Below are positions 1,705 to 43,449 of a stretch of DNA of 43,449 nucleotides, piece after piece. This DNA is from a virus. Taxonomy: Duplodnaviria; Caudoviricetes. The notes beneath the pieces are model-generated. The model was given only the letters and a program-made list of their open reading frames with translations. It did not search any database and was not told the origin of the DNA. The stretch is from IMG/VR virus record IMGVR_UViG_3300037714_000077, positions 1-43,449 of that record, one strand, 5' to 3'. Position 1 is the stretch's first letter. Each line of letters begins with the position of its first letter. The position numbers and the translations under genes were made by a program.

Positions 1705-2090
1705 GCAGAAAAATAGCCATCGCCGGTTGGCCCCGCACGGGCAAGACTACCCGCGGCAAGTCCATCGCACTTGGTGTGGGTGAGCTCCGTTCCACGGACG
1801 CCCTCAAGGAAGTGGGCGACTGGTCCAAGGAGTCCGAGATCGCCGCGCAGATGTTCAACGAGCCTGCATCGTTCGTGATCGAAGGCATGGTGGTTCCCCG
1901 TGCCCTGCGGAAGTGGCTTGCATCGAATCCGGAGGGCCGGCCGGTCGATGAGGTAATCTGGATGGGCTCGCCGAAGATCGAGACATCGAAGGGTCAGGAT
2001 GCAATGGGCAAGGGTGCGGAGACGGTGATGAGGGAGATCCTGCCAGAGCTACGGAAACGGGGCGTCAACGTGGAGGGATTCGATGGGTGA
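1701..2090 (+). CDS. Small P-loop kinase (adenylate/nucleoside kinase-like)
   Basis: IAIAGWPRTGKTT Walker A, STD, VIEG. Confidence 0.7.
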   Translation: MSRKIAIAGWPRTGKTTRGKSIALGVGELRSTDALKEVGDWSKESEIAAQMFNEPASFVIEGMVVPRALRKWLASNPEGRPVDEVIWMGSPKIETSKGQDAMGKGAETVMREILPELRKRGVNVEGFDG

Positions 2091-2688
2091 CCAGCAGCCG
2101 CGCTGGACAGGAAGGGCCGCGAGGTACGCAGAGGCGCTGGGGTTCGATCCCGACACGGGCGAAAAGACTGAGGCCCGCCTTCCCGTTTGGGACCAGGAAG
2201 CGTCCGCACCCGAGCAGGTCGAGCTCCTGTGCGCCCTGATTCGCTGCCAGAGGCCCGAGATACTGGTCGAGGCGGGCACGTATCGGGGCCATGCGGCCTA
2301 CCATATCGGCAAAGTGCTGCAATCGCTCGACTTTGGGCACCTCCACACCGCTGACCCGGTGCCAAACGGTCAGATGGCCACACTTTCAGGGTTCAAGCGG
2401 GTCACATTCTACCCGCGGGACTTCCTGAAGGTGCTGGAAGGCATCCCGGCGGTCGATTTCGCCTATATCGACGCCTCGGATCACAGCAAACCGGGCGGCG
2501 CGGGGCTCCGGTGGCTCCATTTCGAGGCCGTGCGGGCGAAATTGAGGCCGGGAGGCATCATCTGCGTCGATGACACGGCGGCCGATGACTGGAACGACGG
2601 CGAGGGAGGGCTTTCCGTGCATAGAATCCGCGACCTGTGCCTGAATTTCACGTTCCTGCGCGGCCTTTCGGTGTTCACATGCACCTGA
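2083..2688 (+). CDS. Class I SAM-dependent methyltransferase (Methyltransf_24-like)
   Basis: LVEAGTYRG, DFAYIDASDH, LRPGGIICVDD. Confidence 0.85.
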   Translation: MGDQQPRWTGRAARYAEALGFDPDTGEKTEARLPVWDQEASAPEQVELLCALIRCQRPEILVEAGTYRGHAAYHIGKVLQSLDFGHLHTADPVPNGQMATLSGFKRVTFYPRDFLKVLEGIPAVDFAYIDASDHSKPGGAGLRWLHFEAVRAKLRPGGIICVDDTAADDWNDGEGGLSVHRIRDLCLNFTFLRGLSVFTCT

Positions 2689-3380
2689 CCATCGCCACCA
2701 TCGTGAGAAACGAGGCCGACCGCTTCCTCCCCTCTGCACTGGAGGCGTGGAAGTCGTTTGCCGACCGCATCGTGGTCGTTGACGATGGGTCTGACGATGG
2801 CACGGCGGACCTGTGCATGGAGGCGGGCTGCGAAGTTTACCGCCATCGTGCGATTATGTTCGGTGAGGAATGGCTAGCTCGTCGCAAACTCTGGCGACTC
2901 GCGACGTTCAACGCCGACTGGGTGTTCTGGCTCGACGGCGATCAGGTGCCTTCGAGCGACCCGCGCCCTCACCTGAAAGCGCCCGTATCCCTGTTCCGCC
3001 TCTACGACCTCTGGAGCGAGAGCGAGTACCGTGAGGATGCATGGTGGACGGGACATCTGCGCTGCTGGTGGCCCGCAGTCCATGTCCCGTCATTGCCCGA
3101 GGGCTTCCGCGATGAATGGCCGGAGCGCGGCTGGCATTCAGGGCATGTGCCGATGAACGTGCCGGGGCCAAAGCATCCGGTGAACGGCTGCGCGATTCTG
3201 CACTATGCGTACTCGAGCCCCGAACTGCGCGAGCAGAAAGCCCGCATGTACGAGGAACTGGCGCCGCACCTGACCGGAGCGGAGCGGTTCCATGCGCGGA
3301 CCATTCTGACGCCGAATCCTGTAGTGAAACCTCTCCCAATGGAGCCAAAATGGAGACTTCAGGTAGGAGCAAAAACATGA
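2679..3380 (+). CDS. Glycosyltransferase family 2
   Basis: IVRNEADRFL, VVVDDGSDDGT, WVFWLDGDQ, ILHYAY. Confidence 0.88.
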   Translation: MHLTIATIVRNEADRFLPSALEAWKSFADRIVVVDDGSDDGTADLCMEAGCEVYRHRAIMFGEEWLARRKLWRLATFNADWVFWLDGDQVPSSDPRPHLKAPVSLFRLYDLWSESEYREDAWWTGHLRCWWPAVHVPSLPEGFRDEWPERGWHSGHVPMNVPGPKHPVNGCAILHYAYSSPELREQKARMYEELAPHLTGAERFHARTILTPNPVVKPLPMEPKWRLQVGAKT

Positions 3381-11252: not shown

Positions 11253-11971
11253 GTCGCCATATCGGTATCGCGATTCCCTGTCAGGATCAGGTCGACGCGT
11301 GGTTTACGCACGACCTGTGTCGCGCAATGGCGACTCACGCCTTTGCGTTCCCGGACGACAACCTGACGCTCTCCATGCACCAGTCCGCATTCCTTGCGGA
11401 AGCGCGGAACGTGCTGGTCAAGGAACTGATCGAGGCCGGTGTCGACTTCGTTGTGTTCCTCGACAGCGACATGCGGTTCCCGCCGACACTGCTGAACGAC
11501 CTGTGCGCGCATGACCTGCCTGTGGTGGCCGCGAACTGTGCGAAGCGGCGGCGACCGATCAGCGCCACGGCACGGAAGGAGAATCCGGACGATCCGACCA
11601 AGCTGGATGCGGTGTGGCCGGACCCGGAGAAGCGGGAAGGCATCGAGAGGATTGCGGTTGTGGGAACTGCCGTCATGGCGATCAAGATGGAGGTGTTCTT
11701 TCAGGTCGAGTATCCGTGGTATATGACTCCGTGGCATCCGGAGGACCAGCGGTTTGTCGGTGAAGATCTCTACTGGTGTGCGCAACTGAAAAAGGCCGGC
11801 GTGCCACTCTACATCGACCATGCCGTTTCGTGGCAGGTCGGACACATCGGCCAGTACGAGTACCGCATGCAGGATGTGCTGGGCGAGCGCGAGTTGGCCC
11901 GGCAGGGGCGCTGGGATCATTTGCGCCCTGAAATCGAGAATGGTCGCCCACTGATCGAGGTGGCGAAGTGA
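11249..11971 (+). CDS. Glycosyltransferase, GT-A fold (GT2-like)
   Basis: ARNVLV, VVFLDSDMRFP, GEDLYWC, GHIG. Confidence 0.8.
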   Translation: MSRHIGIAIPCQDQVDAWFTHDLCRAMATHAFAFPDDNLTLSMHQSAFLAEARNVLVKELIEAGVDFVVFLDSDMRFPPTLLNDLCAHDLPVVAANCAKRRRPISATARKENPDDPTKLDAVWPDPEKREGIERIAVVGTAVMAIKMEVFFQVEYPWYMTPWHPEDQRFVGEDLYWCAQLKKAGVPLYIDHAVSWQVGHIGQYEYRMQDVLGERELARQGRWDHLRPEIENGRPLIEVAK

Positions 11972-15460: not shown

Positions 15461-15645
15461 ACGATACGATCTGGGCTGACGGCGTGTGGGCAGAAGGTGT
15501 CTGGGCAGAAGGTGTCTGGGCTGCGCGCGGCACGGCAACGCCCAGTGACGGCCTGCACTTCCGCTCGAACAGCTTCAACCGCCGACGTTTCGGTGGACTG
15601 TTCGCAATGGTGATCCTGACGCTGACAGGAGTCGGTCATGGCTGA
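15457..15645 (+). CDS. Small protein with W-A-[DE]-G-V pentapeptide repeats
   Basis: IWADGVWAEGVWAEGVWA; overlaps both neighbours. Confidence 0.55.
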   Translation: MNDTIWADGVWAEGVWAEGVWAARGTATPSDGLHFRSNSFNRRRFGGLFAMVILTLTGVGHG

Positions 15646-16693
15646 CGGGGCGACAACGAACCTGGCATTGGTCCTCCCCGAGGTCGGCGCATCTGCCGAC
15701 ACATGGGGCGCGAAGCTCAACAGCAACTTCATCGATCTGGATGCGCTGTTCGATGCGACCGGCGCGAATCTGGGGCTCGACCATCTCCCGTTCGGCACCG
15801 CGCGTCAGCTTCTCCAGACGAACGCGGGCGCTACGGCGGCAGAGTACACGAGCAACGTCGACGTTCCGGGCACGCTGGATGTTACCGGCGCCGCGACACT
15901 GGACAGCACACTGGGGGTGACGGGAGCCGCCACGCTTGCATCGACGCTGGGGGTGACGGGCGCCGCTACGCTGTCGTCGACGCTGGGGGTCACGGGCGCG
16001 GCCACGCTGTCGGCCACGCTAGCCGTCACCGGAGCCGCTACGCTGTCGAGCACGCTCAGTGTCGCGGGGGCCGTGACGCTTACCGCGGCCTCCGGGTTGA
16101 TCGCGAGCAACACGGCGGACGGCTCAGACTCCAAGTCGGTCGCGCTGACAGGTGGCGGGGCACTCAGTACCGCTCGCGGCGCCTTTGTTTTCGCTTGCGG
16201 GAACGAGCACGCGACTCTCCCCGGCCTTATTCAGGTCGGAGCTGGGAATGTCTCGGGCGCGGCCCTCCAGCTTATGACAGCCGGTACGGAACGACTCGGC
16301 ATCTCGCACGCGGGCGCCGTCACAATCACCGGCACGTTGGGCGTTACAGGTGCCGTGACGCTCACGGACACGCTCGCATGGGGCGGCGGCGCTGCAATCG
16401 CGTCGAGCGACGACCTGACCGACAACGAGATCCTGACGGGCACGACGACATGGCAGCCCGGGGCGGGCACGGTGAACGCGAACGAGGGCGTTCAGACTAC
16501 CGTAGCGGTCGTAGGCGCAGCGGTCGGCGACCTCGTGGTTGTGGCGCAGGTGTTTCAGGCGGACGTCAGTTCCCTCATCAGCGCAGCATGGGTCACGTCG
16601 GCCGATCTGGTCGGGATCTCTGTCAGGAACGTGAGCGGTACGAATGCGACGACCACGAGCCGCGCGCAGCGCGTCTTTGTCATTAAGCCCTGA
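15638..16693 (+). CDS. Tail fibre protein
   Basis: TTNLALVLPEVGASADTWGAKLNSNF head-binding-like start; 12-aa TLGVTGAATLxS repeats. Confidence 0.8.
   Translation: MADGATTNLALVLPEVGASADTWGAKLNSNFIDLDALFDATGANLGLDHLPFGTARQLLQTNAGATAAEYTSNVDVPGTLDVTGAATLDSTLGVTGAATLASTLGVTGAATLSSTLGVTGAATLSATLAVTGAATLSSTLSVAGAVTLTAASGLIASNTADGSDSKSVALTGGGALSTARGAFVFACGNEHATLPGLIQVGAGNVSGAALQLMTAGTERLGISHAGAVTITGTLGVTGAVTLTDTLAWGGGAAIASSDDLTDNEILTGTTTWQPGAGTVNANEGVQTTVAVVGAAVGDLVVVAQVFQADVSSLISAAWVTSADLVGISVRNVSGTNATTTSRAQRVFVIKP
15871..16085 (+). repeat. About 6 tandem 36-bp coding repeats in the tail fibre
   Basis: Repeated TL(D/G/A/S)V(T/A)GA(A/V)TL units. Confidence 0.8.
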
Positions 16694-24027: not shown

Positions 24028-24053
24028 GCTACGCACACCGTTAGGAGGCACAC

Positions 24054-24215
24054 ATGGAAGTCATCATCTCGGTCCTGATTGCGTTCCTGATCTTCGCGCT
24101 CGTCTGCTGGATCATCAGCGTGATCCCGCTCCCGGAGTCGCCCTTCCCCATCAAGGTGGTCCTGTACGTTCTGGCCGCGGTCGCGATGATTATCTTCCTG
24201 CTGCGGTTCATCTGA
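24054..24215 (+). CDS. Small two-TM membrane protein (53 aa, not in the ORF track)
   Basis: AGGAGG RBS; MEVIISVLIAFLIFALVCWIISVIPLPESPFPIKVVLYVLAAVAMIIFLLRFI. Confidence 0.75.
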   Translation: MEVIISVLIAFLIFALVCWIISVIPLPESPFPIKVVLYVLAAVAMIIFLLRFI

Positions 24216-24240
24216 AACACCTACCCCACGGAGGCACACC

Positions 24241-24456
24241 ATGCCACGCCCGCACTACTGGTGGAACATCACGGACCTGAAAAGCGCCGGATTCGTCGAC
24301 GCACTGGAAGCGGCCGGCCCCAACGCGACCCTGCGCTTCCATGAGGATACGCAGTTGTTCACGATCAAGGACCCCGATGCGGTCACGACGCAGTCACACG
24401 AGGGCGATGAAGGCTACAACTTCGTTCACCGTTGCCCGCCGGAGCCGTGCCCGTGA
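24241..24456 (+). CDS. Small protein ending NFVHRCPPEPCP (peptide-precursor-like)
   Basis: GGAGG RBS; 71 aa; GTGA overlap with the next gene. Confidence 0.7.
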   Translation: MPRPHYWWNITDLKSAGFVDALEAAGPNATLRFHEDTQLFTIKDPDAVTTQSHEGDEGYNFVHRCPPEPCP

Positions 24457-25028
24457 GCCCTCCGCGCTGGATGATGGAGCCGCTGCACCTGTCGTCACTG
24501 GTGCCCGCCGTGTTCCTGCTGTCGTGGGGACGTGGCGTACCGCGCGCGTGGTGGCTGGTCGGCATCGCGTTCGGCGTGTCGTACGTCGCTGATTCGGTGA
24601 TTGGCGCGACCATCCACTCGTGGAGCGGGGACTACTGGTGGCTACCGATTCAATTCGCGCTCGTGCTCATGGCCGTGAAGCCGGACCTGCTGCTGCTCTG
24701 GGCGCTCATGCTCACAGCGATGGCGTCGTGGCTCATGAGCGCGCCCGGGCCGGACTGGCTGCTGACGCTGGTCGGTAGCCTGCTCGTGCTGTTCTACGCT
24801 CGAGGACGAATTGCGGTGCCGCTCTGGCTCTACTTCGGCGCGGGCAGCATTGCGTATTCGGGCATGCTCGCGACGATGAGCGACGTACTGCCCGCGTGGT
24901 ATCTGTATCAGGGGTGCCGCCTGACTGCATTCGGCGCCTTCGTGTTCATGCTTCACCGTGAGGCCGGTAATGGGCGAGGCAGCGACAGAGATCTTGCCGG
25001 GGCTGCTCGTACTGCTGGCCTTGGGTAA
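24453..25028 (+). CDS. Multi-pass (~6-7 TM) membrane protein
   Basis: Successive hydrophobic segments; LWLYFGAGSIAY. Confidence 0.75.
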   Translation: MSPPRWMMEPLHLSSLVPAVFLLSWGRGVPRAWWLVGIAFGVSYVADSVIGATIHSWSGDYWWLPIQFALVLMAVKPDLLLLWALMLTAMASWLMSAPGPDWLLTLVGSLLVLFYARGRIAVPLWLYFGAGSIAYSGMLATMSDVLPAWYLYQGCRLTAFGAFVFMLHREAGNGRGSDRDLAGAARTAGLG

Positions 25029-25059
25029 AGCTGCGGCTGTAGAGCTGCGGGAGGGCGGC

Positions 25060-25470
25060 ATGGTGCTCGAAATAATCGCCCTCGCCGCCCTCATCGGCAT
25101 ACCGAGCGCGGGCGTCATCTTCTGGCGCGCGGGGCTGAACAAGCTGGACGAGCGGTTCATGGACCGGGAGGCATTCCAGAAGCTGCGGGCGGATGTCGAC
25201 GGAGAGATGGCAGAAGTGCGCGGGCTTGTCCAGACGATGATGGGCAAGTGGGAAACGCTGGACCAGAAGGTGGCGACCCTCATCATCGATGAGCGCCACC
25301 GGGATGCAAAGATGGGGCGCATCGAGGCGCAGTTGACCGCCGTCACGGAGAAGCTGCACAAGCTGGAGCTGGACCAGCGCGACGGCTTCAGCACGCTGAA
25401 GGACTACCTGAACAGCAGTATGAAGCAGCAGTTGGAGGAGATCCGCGACATGGTCGACCGGAAAATCTGA
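25060..25470 (+). CDS. Single-TM coiled-coil protein (lysis-associated)
   Basis: GGGAGG RBS; N-terminal TM followed by heptad coiled coil. Confidence 0.65.
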   Translation: MVLEIIALAALIGIPSAGVIFWRAGLNKLDERFMDREAFQKLRADVDGEMAEVRGLVQTMMGKWETLDQKVATLIIDERHRDAKMGRIEAQLTAVTEKLHKLELDQRDGFSTLKDYLNSSMKQQLEEIRDMVDRKI

Positions 25471-25480
25471 GGAGGCCGAC

Positions 25481-25723
25481 ATGCAGGTACTCGTGAAGGC
25501 GAAATCGTTGTGGTCGAGCAAGACGTTCTGGTTCAACGTCCTGTCCGGCGCATTGGAGGTCGCGCAGATCCTGCTCGATTTCCGCGTCATCGAGGCCGAC
25601 AAGATCCTGATGGGGATGGCAGTCGGCAACGTCATCCTGCGCTACGTCACGAAGCAGCCCGTGACCGTGACGCCCGGCGTGCAGGCGATGGCGGTCGACG
25701 CACCGGAGCCGCGGACGCTATGA
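25481..25723 (+). CDS. Holin
   Basis: KSLWSSKTFWFN, two TMs, NVILRYVTKQPV; overlaps the endolysin start. Confidence 0.75.
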   Translation: MQVLVKAKSLWSSKTFWFNVLSGALEVAQILLDFRVIEADKILMGMAVGNVILRYVTKQPVTVTPGVQAMAVDAPEPRTL

Positions 25724-26256
25724 TTGTCATCGATGCAGGTCATGGAGGCTCTGACCCGGGCGCGTCCGTGGGCAGCGTCGTTGAGAAGCACCTTGCGCTG
25801 ATCTACGCGATGTCGCTCGGCGGTGAGCTCTGCCGGCTGAACGTGCCGGTCATCTACACGCGCACGAGTGACACGTACCCGACGCTGGGCGATCGCACGG
25901 CGCTCGCGAACGAGAAGAACGCCGCCGGCTTCGTGTCGGTCCACTTCAACGCGAGCGCAAATCGGGATGCGGCCGGCATCTGGCTGCTGCATGCGGCCGG
26001 TGCTCCGGGAGGTCAGGGGCTCGCGGAAGCGATACAGAAGAAGCTCGGCGGCAAGGTCTATCCTGACGGCGCCGGCTGGACGAATGGACGAGGGCTCGCG
26101 GTGTTGCGCAGGACGCGCATGCCGGCGGTGCTGCTGGAGTACGGGTTCCTGACGAACGCCATCGACCGGGAGAACGTTCAGAGCGCCGCGTACATGCGAC
26201 TGCTGGTAGCGAAGACCGCCGCGGGGATCGTGGCGTGGATGAAGGCACTCGGATGA
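25720..26256 (+). CDS. Endolysin, N-acetylmuramoyl-L-alanine amidase (Amidase_3)
   Basis: IDAGHGGSDPGA, EK, FVSVHFNA, PAVLLEYGFLTN. Confidence 0.95.
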   Translation: MIVIDAGHGGSDPGASVGSVVEKHLALIYAMSLGGELCRLNVPVIYTRTSDTYPTLGDRTALANEKNAAGFVSVHFNASANRDAAGIWLLHAAGAPGGQGLAEAIQKKLGGKVYPDGAGWTNGRGLAVLRRTRMPAVLLEYGFLTNAIDRENVQSAAYMRLLVAKTAAGIVAWMKALG

Positions 26257-34439: not shown

Positions 34440-35245
34440 GCGAGCGACAGGCGGGCCGCGAACTGGATGCGGAGGTGGCCGAGAAGGTGATGGGGTTGGA
34501 TGTGCGCGGGAAGGCTTGCGCAATCTTCGTGGAGGGAGAATGGAGCATCCACGCCGATAGCGAGCCGGACGGGTGGGCGTGCTACGCTGGCATTGAGCCC
34601 GTCTACCGGATCGACCGCGAATATGTGACCCCGCCGCCTGAGCGCCGCACGGACTGCATCGGGCGTAGGCCGCGCGTCACTGCGCAGATGGTCGAGGTAT
34701 GGTATCAGAAGGAACTGGCCGCATACGAACGCGACATTGAGCGATTCGGTTGCCACTCCCACGACCTCGACGTGGTACCGCTCTACTCCACCAACATCGC
34801 CGAAGCGATGCAGATCGTGGATCGCTGGACAGCGCGGGGGTACCGCGTCTCGCTGGGCACGACGTTCAGCCTTGACGATGGTAACGCAAATGGCTGGCAT
34901 GTGGACATTGGCGGCATAGATGCGCGCGTGTACGATCTGGCCCAACTCCCGCTCGCCATCAGTCTCGCTGCACTGTCCGCGGCGGACAAAGAGACGGAGG
35001 CCAGCATGAGGTACCGAAACGGATACACTTCCCCATACACAACCGGCGTTATGCCCGTGGTTTCCACATCTCCACCTTGTCCACACTACCACGCAGTATG
35101 TCGCATAACTGACGGTAAGTCTCACAAATCCTACAAGCGTGGATTGCGGTCCGATGGGCTGAAAGTGCCGTTTGGTACCCGAAGCGGATACAGTTGCCCC
35201 GACAGCATACCCCTGCCGGCCGGTCCTGCATGTGGGGCCACATGA
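34436..35245 (+). CDS. Phage ABA-sandwich-like protein with an atypical C-terminal extension
   Basis: AGRELDAEVAEKVMG...PLYSTNIAEAMQIV...PLAISLAAL; sequence after ~35006 is lower-GC and ends in GPACGAT. Confidence 0.7.
   Translation: MSERQAGRELDAEVAEKVMGLDVRGKACAIFVEGEWSIHADSEPDGWACYAGIEPVYRIDREYVTPPPERRTDCIGRRPRVTAQMVEVWYQKELAAYERDIERFGCHSHDLDVVPLYSTNIAEAMQIVDRWTARGYRVSLGTTFSLDDGNANGWHVDIGGIDARVYDLAQLPLAISLAALSAADKETEASMRYRNGYTSPYTTGVMPVVSTSPPCPHYHAVCRITDGKSHKSYKRGLRSDGLKVPFGTRSGYSCPDSIPLPAGPACGAT
35010..35200. other. Candidate att-like recombination region
   Basis: Imperfect direct repeats GGTACCGAAACGGATACACTTCCCC (35010-34) and GGTACCCGAAGCGGATACAGTTGCCCC (35174-200) around a lower-GC core. 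Confidence 0.4.
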
Positions 35246-36315
35246 GCTTCACGATTCACGCGGGCGACTGCCTCGATGCCATGCGGGCGATGCATACGGA
35301 TTCGGTGGCCGCCATCGTAACTGATCCACCCTACGGCCTCTCGTTCATGTCGTACGCGTGGGACCGGGGCGTGCCGCCGGTTGCGGTCTGGCAGGAGGCG
35401 TACCGTGTGCTGCGTCCCGGCGGGCGGCTGCTGTGCTTCGCCGGCACGCGGACCATGCACCGCATGTGGTGCAACATCGAGGATGCCGGGTTCACCATCG
35501 AGGATACGGTTGCGTGGATGTACGGGTCCGGCTTCCCGAAACATCGCAGCAAACTAAAGCCCGCATACGAGCCGATCTGCGTAGCGCGGAAGGGGCCGTC
35601 GACGCCGTTGAACATCGATGCGTGCCGCATAGAGACGGGCGACGAACTGGTGCGCCCATCCGTCGAACGCCATGACAACACCGTCTTCGGGAACGGGTTG
35701 GGGGCGGGGACGCAATCCACACTTGTCGGTCGCTGGCCCGCAAACGTGATGCTGGATGAGGAAGCGGCGCGGCTGCTGGATGAGCAGAGCGGGGAAAGCG
35801 TGAGCACAGGAGGCACCAAGACGCGGGGTGCACTAGGTGATCGCGTGTACGGTCAGTTTGTGGATCGCGGGGAGCCTATCGCCAATCACGGCGGCCTTGG
35901 TGACGCCGGCGGCGCATCCCGATTCTTCTACGTCGCGAAGGCGAGCCGGGCCGAGCGCAACGCAGGGCTGGAGGGACAGCCAATGCGGGCGCCATCGCAG
36001 GAGTATGGCATGGGCGCCGTTGAGGGCGATTCGCGCAAGCCCACCAAGTGCACCGCTAGCCGCCCCGTCGAGAACAATCACCCGACCGTAAAGCCCGTCG
36101 ACCTGATGCGCCATCTCGTCCGCCTCGTCACCCCCACCGATGGCGTCGTTCTCGATCCCTTCATGGGAAGCGGCACAACCGGCGTTGCGTGCGTGCTGGA
36201 GGCCCGCCGCTTTATCGGGTGCGAGCTGGACCCGGAGTATGCGGAGATCGCGCGCAGACGCATTGCAAACACGCCGCCTAGCCTATTCGGCGGTCCTGCA
36301 TGTGGGGCCACATGA
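35242..36315 (+). CDS. DNA methyltransferase, beta class (N6A/N4C), copy 1
   Basis: TDPPY, HPTVKP, DPFMGSGTTG. Confidence 0.93.
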   Translation: MSFTIHAGDCLDAMRAMHTDSVAAIVTDPPYGLSFMSYAWDRGVPPVAVWQEAYRVLRPGGRLLCFAGTRTMHRMWCNIEDAGFTIEDTVAWMYGSGFPKHRSKLKPAYEPICVARKGPSTPLNIDACRIETGDELVRPSVERHDNTVFGNGLGAGTQSTLVGRWPANVMLDEEAARLLDEQSGESVSTGGTKTRGALGDRVYGQFVDRGEPIANHGGLGDAGGASRFFYVAKASRAERNAGLEGQPMRAPSQEYGMGAVEGDSRKPTKCTASRPVENNHPTVKPVDLMRHLVRLVTPTDGVVLDPFMGSGTTGVACVLEARRFIGCELDPEYAEIARRRIANTPPSLFGGPACGAT

Positions 36316-36926
36316 GCACGTGGCAGCCGATTGCAACAGCGCCGAAGGACGGGACGAAGGTTGTGTTGCTCGGCTACGTCGGCGGTGACGCTCACGGTCG
36401 CCCGCTCCGCGCTTGCATCGGCCAGTGGCATGACCCCGAGACCGAACCACCCAACCTCATGTGTGCCGGTTGGCTGTGGACATCGCCGGGCTACACCGAC
36501 CGCATGGAGCCGACGCACTGGATGCCGCTGCCAATCGTTGACCGCGGTCCTGCATATGGGGGAGAGGTGAGCGAGCCAATTAAATCCCGCTGCTGTTGTC
36601 CGCGATACGTCACGCGGAAGGAATGCATCCGCATCCGTTACGAGGGTAGGGGCAGAGTGGACCCCTACGACGAGTGCGTGTGCTGCTGCCACGATGAGCA
36701 GGAAGATGACGAATACGATGCGTTGACAGAAAGCGAAAGGGTGGACGAACGAGCGGTGGGCGCGCAAACGGCTCGCCACCCGCCTATGACCGACATGGTC
36801 ACGGTCCCGCGCTCATACCTGCAAACCCTTCTGTATGGCGTTCGGCAGACTGAGCGCAACGCCATCCGTACCCGTGAACGACTGGAGCGTGCGTTGATCG
36901 GCGGTCCTGCATGTGGGGCCACATGA
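36312..36926 (+). CDS. DUF551-like protein fused in frame to a Cys-rich module
   Basis: WQPIATAPKDGT...PTHWMPLP, then read-through of the variant repeat; possible internal GTG start at 36567. Confidence 0.75.
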   Translation: MSTWQPIATAPKDGTKVVLLGYVGGDAHGRPLRACIGQWHDPETEPPNLMCAGWLWTSPGYTDRMEPTHWMPLPIVDRGPAYGGEVSEPIKSRCCCPRYVTRKECIRIRYEGRGRVDPYDECVCCCHDEQEDDEYDALTESERVDERAVGAQTARHPPMTDMVTVPRSYLQTLLYGVRQTERNAIRTRERLERALIGGPACGAT

Positions 36927-38107
36927 GCTACACGATTGTCGCGGGCGACTGCCTCGACGCGATGCGAGCGATGCTGCCGGACTCCGTGGACGCGATCGTA
37001 ACCGATCCGCCCTACGGCCTCTCGTTCATGAGCAAGGAATGGGATCGGGGCGTGCCGCCGGTTGCGGTCTGGCAGGAGGCGTTGCGCGTGCTCAAGCCCG
37101 GAGGGCGGCTGCTGTGCTTCGCCGGCACGCGGACGATGCACCGCATGTGGTGCAACATCGAGGATGCCGGGTTCACCATCGAGGACACTATTGCGTGGAT
37201 GTACGGCTCCGGCTTCCCGAAACACAGGAGCAAGTTGAAGCCCGCATACGAGCCCATCTGCGTAGCGCGGAAGGGGCCGGTGTCGGAGTTGAACATCGAT
37301 GAGTGCCGGATCGCGGGCGACGAGGACGGGTCGCGCAATCGCCCACCGTCCCGACTTGGCAGCGGGCGCACATACGCGCAGGACGAGTGGACGCACAATG
37401 TGGTAGTCGAGCGACAGGACACAACCGGCAAAGGCCGCTGGCCCGCAAACGTAATGCTGACGCACCATGCAGATTGCCAACTGGTCGGAACACGGTGGGT
37501 GCGCAAGGATCACGGAGACGGCGATGCGGACGGGATGGAGACAATCCCCGCGTGGCTCTGTCACCTCGACTGCCCTGTGCGACTACTGGATGAGCAGAGC
37601 GGGCGACGCGGGGACCTCGTAGGCGGCGTCGGTGTCGGTGGACACATCGGCTACCGCGGCGGTGCGGCTGGCATAGTGCGGACAGGATTCAACGACACGG
37701 GCGGCGCCAGCAGATTCTTCTATGTGGCGAAGGCCAGCCGTGCCGAGCGCAACGCAGGGCTAGGAGACCTGCCGCTACGGCCATCCGGCACGATGGAGGA
37801 TGACGGATACGACTGGTCGCGTGAAGTCGAGCGCGGACGCAAGCCGCGCGACACTCGCAATCAGAACCACCATCCCACCGTGAAGCCTGTAGACCTGATG
37901 CGCCATCTCGTCCGCCTCATCACCCCCACCGATGGCGTCGTTCTCGATCCCTTCATGGGAAGCGGCACCACCGGCGTTGCGTGCGTGCTGGAGGCCCGCC
38001 GCTTTATCGGGTGCGAGCTGGACCCGGAGTATGCGGAGATCGCCCGCAGACGGATTGCAAACACGCCTCCTAGCCTATTCGGTGCTGCATGTGGGGAGGC
38101 AACGTGA
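36923..38107 (+). CDS. DNA methyltransferase, beta class (N6A/N4C), copy 2
   Basis: TDPPY, HPTVKP, DPFMGSGTTG; ends nearly identical to copy 1. Confidence 0.93.
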   Translation: MSYTIVAGDCLDAMRAMLPDSVDAIVTDPPYGLSFMSKEWDRGVPPVAVWQEALRVLKPGGRLLCFAGTRTMHRMWCNIEDAGFTIEDTIAWMYGSGFPKHRSKLKPAYEPICVARKGPVSELNIDECRIAGDEDGSRNRPPSRLGSGRTYAQDEWTHNVVVERQDTTGKGRWPANVMLTHHADCQLVGTRWVRKDHGDGDADGMETIPAWLCHLDCPVRLLDEQSGRRGDLVGGVGVGGHIGYRGGAAGIVRTGFNDTGGASRFFYVAKASRAERNAGLGDLPLRPSGTMEDDGYDWSREVERGRKPRDTRNQNHHPTVKPVDLMRHLVRLITPTDGVVLDPFMGSGTTGVACVLEARRFIGCELDPEYAEIARRRIANTPPSLFGAACGEAT

Positions 38108-43312: not shown

Positions 43313-43373
43313 GGGCAGGAATGATCGTTTGACCCCCCCTTCATCGGAAAGGGGTGCAGTCCCGGGGGGGGGG

Positions 43374-43449
43374 CAACGAGCCTGCATCGTTCGTGATCGA
43401 AGGCATGGTGGTTCCCCGTGCCCTGCGGAAGTGGCTTGCATCGAATCCG
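43374..43449 (+). other. 76-nt exact copy of 1856-1931 after a G10 run (probable assembly artefact)
   Basis: Identical to an internal part of the kinase gene; joined at a homopolymer. Confidence 0.75.

Follow-up and report, generated by a model that had tools for sequence, protein, structure and literature searches.

The window analysed here is a whole virus record of 43.4 kb. At the locus under study it encodes a small protein with a cysteine- and proline-containing tail, referred to below as the tag protein, and a multi-pass membrane protein whose start overlaps the tag stop codon (Table 1). The original prediction had described three open reading frames (ORFs), the GTGA overlap and the C-terminus of the tag protein, YNFVHRCPPEPCP, all of which proved real, and the 53-residue protein ahead of the pair does have two hydrophobic segments. 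All three ORFs gave positive codon scores against the phage's own usage, and the GC content at codon position 3 of the pair (0.81 and 0.79) matches that of the phage. A public database starts the membrane protein at the ATG at 24471, which yields 185 residues (P0005).

Table 1. Features of the tag/membrane protein locus and of the adjoining lysis region (window coordinates).
Feature	Position	Strand	Remarks
Ribosome-binding site GGAGG + spacer, copy 1	24044..24053	+	
53-aa two-helix membrane protein	24054..24215	+	Thivi_2564-like, below cut-off
Ribosome-binding site GGAGG + spacer, copy 2	24230..24239	+	
Small tag protein, 71 aa	24241..24456	+	alpha/beta body, flexible linker, conserved tail; putative ligand or ligand precursor
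Tag tail region, residues 54-71	24400..24453	+	variable residues 54-59, 61, 62, 64 around fixed N60, H63, C65, P66, P67, C70
Seven-helix membrane protein (7TM), 191 aa, GTG start	24453..25028	+	putative receptor, predicted N-out/C-in
7TM first outer loop and flanking helix ends, residues 48-65	24594..24647	+	putative specificity site
Downstream overlapping gene	24970..25470	+	166 aa from 24970 or 136 aa from 25060
Holin-like membrane protein, 80 aa	25481..25723	+	by position and hydropathy only; no family match
Endolysin, N-acetylmuramoyl-L-alanine amidase	25720..26256	+	PF01520 (Amidase_3), E 2e-36; phrog_435

The leader that had been noticed in front of both small ORFs is identical in the two places: GGAGGCACAC occurs exactly twice in the window, both strands counted, at 24044 and 24230. 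It consists of a Shine-Dalgarno GGAGG and a spacer, and near-variants precede other genes (8369 and 35809). We therefore rejected it as a regulatory element and regard it as an ordinary ribosome-binding site. Downstream of the pair, the last ~19 residues of the 191-residue frame overlap the next gene if its possible start at 24970 is used. Both plausible starts of that gene, 24970 and 25060, have a ribosome-binding site, and they give a two-helix and a one-helix form, respectively. Holins are known for dual starts, and the arrangement is reminiscent of them. The product has one or two hydrophobic segments followed by a helical cytoplasmic part, and it matched no family above cut-off in Pfam and NCBIfam scans.

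Pfam and PHROG scans of the record identified an SU10-type portal and capsid, a terminase, a putative ejection protein, an amidase, an integrase and Erf. This combination of SU10-type head genes with terminase, integrase, Erf and amidase fits a temperate podovirus. HATPase_c had no match anywhere in the record, and Pfam found no kinase or receiver family among the 80 ORFs of the window, in line with the earlier statement that neither a kinase nor a response regulator is present here. Window Pfam scans found no TPR family, no protease or transporter was recognised next to the tag gene, and a scan for promoter-like sites upstream of the pair on its strand, weak for this host, returned none. The phage DNA is present in sediment metagenomes, with run X1 as the possible source, and no RNA dataset is listed among the datasets carrying its sequence.

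Several features elsewhere in the record were recorded in passing. At 43364-43449, a run of ten G is followed by the final 76 bases of the window, which are an exact copy of 1856-1931, and the record begins with nine G (1-9); it may be a complete circle that closes via this run of G and has a chimeric end, although its completeness is put at 59% by CheckV. Two N6_N4 DNA methyltransferase genes (35194-36315 and 36911-38107) are 88-90% identical in parts and are surrounded by four copies of a ~26-base repeat (35211, 36281, 36892 and 38528). Interspersed with the packaging and head genes (2083-3377 and 11327-11968) are a gene for Methyltransf_24 and two that resemble glycosyltransferases (GT2, Anp1), and a 36-base coding repeat at 15872-16087, inside a 351-residue ORF at 15638, is probably a fibre repeat.

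The tag protein matched nothing in Pfam, PHROG or NCBIfam. Its type of ending is rare, as a CP[PG]x0-4C terminus was found in only 1 of the 649 stop-to-stop segments of at least 40 residues in the window. Across the family, the tail follows the consensus [ND]-x-x-H-x-C-P-P-x(1-3)-C, and C65, P67 and C70 are invariant in 27 aligned small proteins, in an alignment that spans their length. The tails hold two cysteines and mostly end 0-3 residues past the second one, with no conserved follower. The structure model is weak (pLDDT 62); it has a compact alpha/beta body with residues 46-60 disordered, and the fold search with this weak model returned nothing above Z 2.1. No export signal was found, the best 12-residue hydropathy in the first 40 residues being 0.8 (by a hydropathy proxy, not a signal-peptide predictor). 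The same holds for 25 of the 27 phage-type small proteins, and in the other two the hydrophobic segment is internal. Passage of an 8-kDa protein across an outer membrane would be difficult.

The membrane protein had been credited with about six to seven transmembrane segments. Its multi-pass nature was upheld and the predicted helix count is now seven, according to an AlphaFold2 model of residues 1-172 (pLDDT 87.4, pTM 0.83). Pfam, PHROG and NCBIfam gave no match. A 12-sequence profile retrieved 243 clusters at 50% identity, of which the best 150 were 61-239 residues long. Fused forms of 420-2000 residues were not found, which is weak evidence, lengths up to 239 residues being those among the matches listed. 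In 130 sequences, loops 1, 3 and 5 and the C-terminus carry 1.5-2.4 Lys plus Arg per sequence, and the N-terminus and loops 2, 4 and 6 carry 0.2-0.5. This clean alternation of loop charge predicts that the N-terminus is outside and the C-terminus inside. With this topology, most of the near-invariant polar residues would, by their position in the sequence, fall in the outer half of their helix. The near-invariant set comprises P18, S43, D47, Q67, Y127, W149, Y152, Q153 and R156 (S43, Q67 and R156 97% conserved, D47 93%); H12 is conserved at 78%. They include the motifs S43xxxD47 in helix 2 and WxxYQxxR in helix 7.

The model resembles known seven-helix proteins in its overall shape. The best fold-search hit was a designed GPCR-like fold (VIA; Z 12.9, rmsd 3.5, 172 aligned), with Smoothened, class C GPCRs and halorhodopsin following at Z ~10, and identities were 6-18%; Foldseek hits had E 0.03 or weaker, among them bacteriorhodopsin with a TM score of ~0.55 (E 0.07 or weaker). 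For helical bundles, Z values below about 13 may reflect a shared arrangement only. In the 130 sequences, no helix-7 column before residue 168 has more than 5% Lys, the residue that would bind retinal. CREST membrane hydrolases (PAQR, ceramidase, HlyIII) hold zinc with three histidines, which belong to the motifs SxxxH and HxxWH. In the phage family, conserved His is missing from helix 7, and conserved Cys from the whole protein (best column 37%). Since helix 7 has neither a conserved Lys nor a conserved His and conserved cysteines are absent, we ruled out a retinal protein (microbial rhodopsin) as well as the His triad of the CREST hydrolases. Weak look-alikes were an Atlas cluster named lysoplasmalogenase (score 0.90), YhhN in 1 of the 130 members, and ceramidase in 1 of 27 cellular members. 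Pfam matched no AgrB or peptidase family in the 130 members, and no AgrB-type peptidase among the 80 ORFs of the window.

In order to find the pair elsewhere, motif scans were run and gave 7 + 13 viral, 35 genome and 66 metagenome stretches, among which a profile confirmed 27 7TM homologues (6 viral, 1 genome, 20 metagenome). Five loci with only the C-terminal part were excluded from the count, leaving 22 full-length 7TM loci. A small gene with a Cys-Pro..Cys tail was found directly upstream in all 22, often with overlapping stop and start. Twenty of these loci were recovered through the 7TM pattern alone, and several are near-duplicates. The original prediction had named lack of co-occurrence in other genomes and an unconserved tail as the outcome that would speak against it; the two genes were together throughout, and the tail is conserved. 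In the viral scan with the tail pattern, 11 of 13 matches had no 7TM homologue. Contigs matching in size (1109, 15747 and 7433) point indirectly to three more tag/7TM pairs in the set of closest proteins. Searches by back-translation, either of the window proteins or of narrow alignments, found no locus in viral and metagenome contigs, whereas the degenerate motif scans did, and annotated phages and plasmids had no match to the pair.

For 16 non-redundant pairs, including that of the window, the distances between tag proteins and those between 7TM proteins are correlated (Mantel r 0.62, p 0.0002) at mean identities of 25% and 31%. This shows shared inheritance, not binding. By inspection, the surroundings of the pair are phage-like in 21 of the 22 loci, with lysins, small membrane genes and genes of the tail or ejection type; many of the contigs are short. 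Eight of 10 candidate lysis enzymes beside the pairs score above Pfam cut-offs, three each with Amidase_2 and DUF5675 and two with Peptidase_M15_4, which makes four lysin families when the Amidase_3 of the window is counted. A preprint groups DUF5675 by structure with C82-like peptidase lysins and states its function to be unknown (bioRxiv 10.64898/2026.04.11.717860). The small membrane genes adjoining the pairs do not belong to a single conserved family.

Lysis genes are not required neighbours, as indicated by locus L108. Here cellular DNA carries the pair by itself, flanked by a Uma2 gene and an opposite-strand Ser/Thr kinase gene, with neither a lysis gene nor a one-helix neighbour. The kinase shares 66% identity with one encoded on a plasmid of Gemmatirosa kalamazoonensis, a sequence match that offers a lead to Gemmatimonadota as possible hosts of the family. 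None of 44 loci from distant podoviruses that share a virion protein yielded the pair, 10 of these loci extending far enough downstream, which makes the pair accessory. A gene like that for the 53-residue protein occurs in just 2 of the 22 pair loci (L087/L111), where it is a true family member and follows the endolysin; the other 20 had no match. The window protein itself reached 21.4 bits (E 2e-4) against NF041949, below the cut-off of 33. The original prediction had noted this gene ahead of the pair, and on these grounds we dropped it as a third component of the module: the 53-residue gene and the leader are ordinary lysis-region features.

Some loci deserve a separate mention. The partial locus L105 also looks cellular, and in L081 (1-456) and L107 (1-386) the C-terminal half of a 7TM gene follows unrelated cellular genes, in either chimeric assemblies or decayed copies. 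In a 94-kb phage record, a lone receiver-like protein (L006:2316-2642; PF00072, 27 bits, under cut-off) is encoded two genes upstream of the tag. A recurrent gene of 73-84 residues, with one helix and the motif G-[AV]-Y-[TV], occupies the position immediately ahead of the tag gene in L095 (645-872), L070 (62-280), L098 (825-1052) and L087 (3882-4133); the three that were scanned had no Pfam match, and the gene is possibly a third component in that sub-lineage. Finally, a 42.9-kb contig in a Planctomycetota bin (L028, G001:C56) carries the pair among phage-like genes. None of 200 other Planctomycetota genomes matched, which makes this host assignment doubtful.

The original prediction had pointed to bacterial proteins with a CPPxC tail that are encoded beside multi-pass membrane proteins and two-component systems. 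Such loci are real, and the connection to the phage pair is one of homology. Searching 201 Acidobacteriota genomes with the phage 7TM profile yielded a match in one of them (E 4e-5), and this remote link led, unprompted, to a gene with the expected neighbour: a 213-residue membrane protein preceded by a 103-residue gene with a PCPPFC motif near its end. Relatives of this membrane protein were present in 25 of 151 Bacteroidota genomes, at 32 places, of which 30 were fetched. A gene with a CPx1-3C motif lies upstream in 21 of the 30 and a kinase gene downstream in 26, giving in Bacteroidota and Acidobacteriota (loci L140-L176) a cassette with the order CPPxC protein, 7TM, histidine kinase, NarL-type regulator. 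Nine of the 30 loci lack the Cys tail; in L150, L157, L159-L161 and L164, the Bacteroidota upstream genes have no tail Cys pair, and some end in Pro-rich motifs. L166 and L170 (G089:C1) are a single cassette with two tandem 7TM genes between tag gene and kinase. A search of the 151 Bacteroidota genomes with the tail-plus-stop pattern gave 17 matches and, on inspection, no tag-7TM pair.

Two kinases and one regulator of the cassette were scanned and resemble UhpB/LiaS/NarQ and NarL, respectively, below the cut-offs of the named families. By inspection, the short kinases show a single hydrophobic stretch but lack a sensor domain, so that sensing is left to the 7TM. A hydrophobic N-terminal segment is present in 11 of 21 cellular small proteins, suggesting that the tail works outside in these cases; it is absent in the other 10.

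Profile comparison with hhalign linked the phage and cellular small proteins with probability 95 and E 3e-8. Without the tails, E was 1.3e-3, compared with 0.17 for the best of 20 shuffles. The 7TM profiles aligned over 168 columns with a score of 36.5 (E 6.6e-5, probability 64, 14% identity), and controls reached at most 13.5 in 15 column shuffles, at most 28.1 in 15 block shuffles, and 11.9 with the reversed profile. Judged by these alignments, both phage proteins are remote homologues of the bacterial cassette proteins, and for the 7TM the link is a remote one. The phage pair has two of the three defining parts of the cassette; the histidine kinase and response regulator are missing. From its position, the product of 24970..25470 is a candidate one-helix partner, as it occupies the kinase's place in the bacterial cassette.

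The sequence differences between close relatives are unevenly distributed. In nine close relatives of the 7TM, residues 48-65 are the most variable segment, with a mean identity to the window of 48%, compared with 79-91% from residue 66 on and 71-81% before residue 48. The values for helix 1 and loop 1 lie in between (71-74%), owing to two relatives with a different N-terminal third. In nine close small proteins, tag residues 54-59 and 61, 62 and 64 show 41-42% pairwise identity, against 79-94% for the body. Contigs covering the tail-receptor junction in other runs also differ from the window, at 37 of 214 bases in run X2 and 36 of 243 in run X5; codon 64 encodes Lys in X2 and Val in X5. The X2 pieces flanking the junction differ at 0 of 169 and 5 of 447 bases, with all run pieces being unlinked and shallow, and joints with 21-base sides were treated as noise. 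The amidase region is divergent too (25 of 168 bases in X3, 28 of 191 in X4), so that divergence is not confined to the pair.

We consider it probable that the tag protein and the 7TM are a ligand and its receptor, with the binding as the putative element. This reading, which draws on sequence comparison, rests on the fixed linkage of the two genes, the outward polar face of the 7TM, the variation at both putative contact sites, and the bacterial relatives, which are often exported and kinase-coupled. The original prediction had offered a processing or a receptor partner; of the two, the receptor fits better. An AgrB-like processing enzyme or exporter that cuts or cyclises the tail is improbable, even though the conserved polar residues H12, S43, D47, Q67 and R156 could be catalytic and the lysoplasmalogenase, YhhN and ceramidase look-alikes point the same way. 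The 130 members yielded neither an AgrB nor a peptidase match and have neither a conserved Cys nor a conserved helix-7 His, the tail offers no conserved follower to cleave, ending as it does at or a few residues past the second Cys, and the cassette kinases leave sensing to the 7TM.

As for the output of such a pair, a kin signal that tunes lysis timing is our tentative preference, held at somewhat less than even confidence. It is favoured by the lack of a kinase in the record, the overlapping genes that lead to the holin-like gene and amidase, and the one-helix protein at the kinase's place. The pair would be translated late, together with the lysis genes, and the tag tail would be closed by a disulfide. 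Since the tag has no export signal, it would leave the cell at lysis or travel with the virion. Its Cys-Pro-Pro-x-Cys tail would then bind, in a strain-specific manner, to the outward-facing pocket of the 7TM on other infected cells, and receptor engagement would shift the time of lysis, with the adjacent one-helix or holin-type protein providing the output instead of a kinase. Against lysis tuning stand the L108 pair without lysis neighbours, the neighbouring membrane genes that are not one family, the common gathering of accessory genes in lysis regions, the 0 of 44 podovirus loci, the outer-membrane passage of an 8-kDa tag with no recognised protease or transporter next to its gene, the 10 of 21 cellular small proteins without a hydrophobic N-terminus, the remoteness of the 7TM homology, the 9 of 30 cellular loci without a Cys tail, and the divergence of the amidase region in X3 and X4.

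The output may instead lie in the host. The phage 7TM could dock on a host kinase or another signalling protein, or soak up or jam the host's own tag, so that host behaviour changes and not lysis; we regard this as unlikely. In bacteria, 26 of 30 loci have a kinase gene after the homologous 7TM and this record has none, only one of five other phage records has a receiver domain (below cut-off), the L108 pair of phage type sits by itself in cellular DNA next to the Gemmatirosa-like kinase, and there is a precedent in phage phiCDHM1, which carries agrD/B/C with no regulator (PMC3901668). However, the phage type is a separate and shorter 7TM family (~175 versus ~213 residues, 14% identity), and the pair is embedded among late lysis genes by overlapping starts and stops, with no promoter-like site upstream in the scan that is weak for this host. 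Quite unlikely, in our estimate, is a superinfection or self/non-self gate. The tag would bind its own 7TM within one cell or be brought in by the virion, and on a mismatch the 7TM would bar or allow entry or depolarise the cell. The missing export signal in 25 of 27 small proteins and the position of the pair after putative ejection-protein genes in the window (phrog_4287) agree with a gate, and allelic diversity at both partners fits any kin discrimination. But the predicted outward orientation of the conserved polar residues and of the variable loop turns both away from a partner in the cytoplasm, and the homology suggests a sensor coupled to a kinase. The pair might also be passive cargo at an insertion hot spot with no role in the phage cycle; its absence from related podoviruses (0 of 44 loci) and the half 7TM genes beside unrelated genes in L081 and L107 are compatible with this. 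We give cargo little credence, however, as the two genes have kept open frames side by side in 22 of 22 full-length loci despite identities of 25-31%, the codon position 3 GC matches the phage, and the 7TM family comprises 243 clusters at 50% identity.

With lysis tuning by kin as the preferred reading, the pair can be compared with systems already described. From the bacterial cassette, whose proteins are homologous, adjacent and in the same order, the phage type differs by a shorter 7TM (~175 residues), a shorter tag that lacks an export signal, no kinase or regulator beside it, and placement among lysis genes; in most phage-type tails, a His or Arg also stands two positions ahead of the first Cys. 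The agrBDCA system, including agr3 of phage phiCDHM1, likewise places a precursor gene with a Cys-containing C-terminal core beside a membrane sensor and concentrates variation in the peptide and in the receptor's 5' portion (PMC3673130), and the phiCDHM1 version is also phage-borne without a regulator (PMC3901668). The phage pair differs in that AgrB is missing, the receptor carries no kinase domain, and the tail has two Cys but is not followed by a cleavable peptide; the predicted folded tag body takes the place of the amphipathic leader of agr, and there is no sequence match. The agr thiolactone pattern, a Cys plus four residues and a cleaved follower, was not found in the phage tails.

Arbitrium (AimP-AimR-AimX) is phage-encoded and phage-specific, has its own receptor, and reports kin density, as is proposed for the pair; AimP is secreted by means of a signal, re-enters through Opp and acts on a TPR-HTH protein of the cytoplasm, by which lysogeny is controlled (PMC12472986). 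Unlike arbitrium, the phage pair has no signal peptide, uses a 7TM receptor in the membrane, and is encoded with lysis genes. In T4 lysis inhibition (RI/RIII antiholins, holin T), an outside kin cue is relayed over the inner membrane to delay lysis, which is the output proposed here; RI is a periplasmic antiholin whose signal is given as unidentified (PMC6832632). A dedicated tailed protein and a 7TM set the phage pair apart, and no homology was found. With microbial rhodopsins and GPCRs, the 7TM shares seven helices in the same arrangement and the predicted N-out/C-in topology; it differs from them in its ~172 residues, its 6-18% identity and the lack of a helix-7 Lys. The pair would work like agr, arbitrium or T4 lysis inhibition; it falls outside agr and arbitrium by the differences listed, and it is not a rhodopsin. 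The literature that was covered, with few subscription papers, contained no description of either the phage pair or the bacterial cassette, and the pair is built from undescribed families.

Taken as a whole, the scheme would amount to a new and widespread phage communication channel: a tag is released at lysis or injected, and in neighbouring infected cells a minimal receptor of GPCR shape recognises its disulfide-closed tail and sets lysis time with neither kinase nor transcription factor. The channel would derive from an undescribed bacterial cassette and diversify into private dialects. In this complete form, we consider it doubtful. The phage peptide signalling systems used for comparison belong to Gram-positive hosts and employ cytoplasmic receptors or captured agr genes. 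From the lysis region of environmental phages, the pair supplies a defined ligand candidate together with a receptor candidate, at a time when the signal of T4 lysis inhibition is still unidentified, and its natural allele series is suited to comparing cognate with non-cognate combinations. The phage 7TM is a candidate for a seven-helix receptor of 172 residues and, as the phage version is the bacterial cassette reduced to two genes, it offers the simplest handle on the function of the CPPxC-7TM unit.
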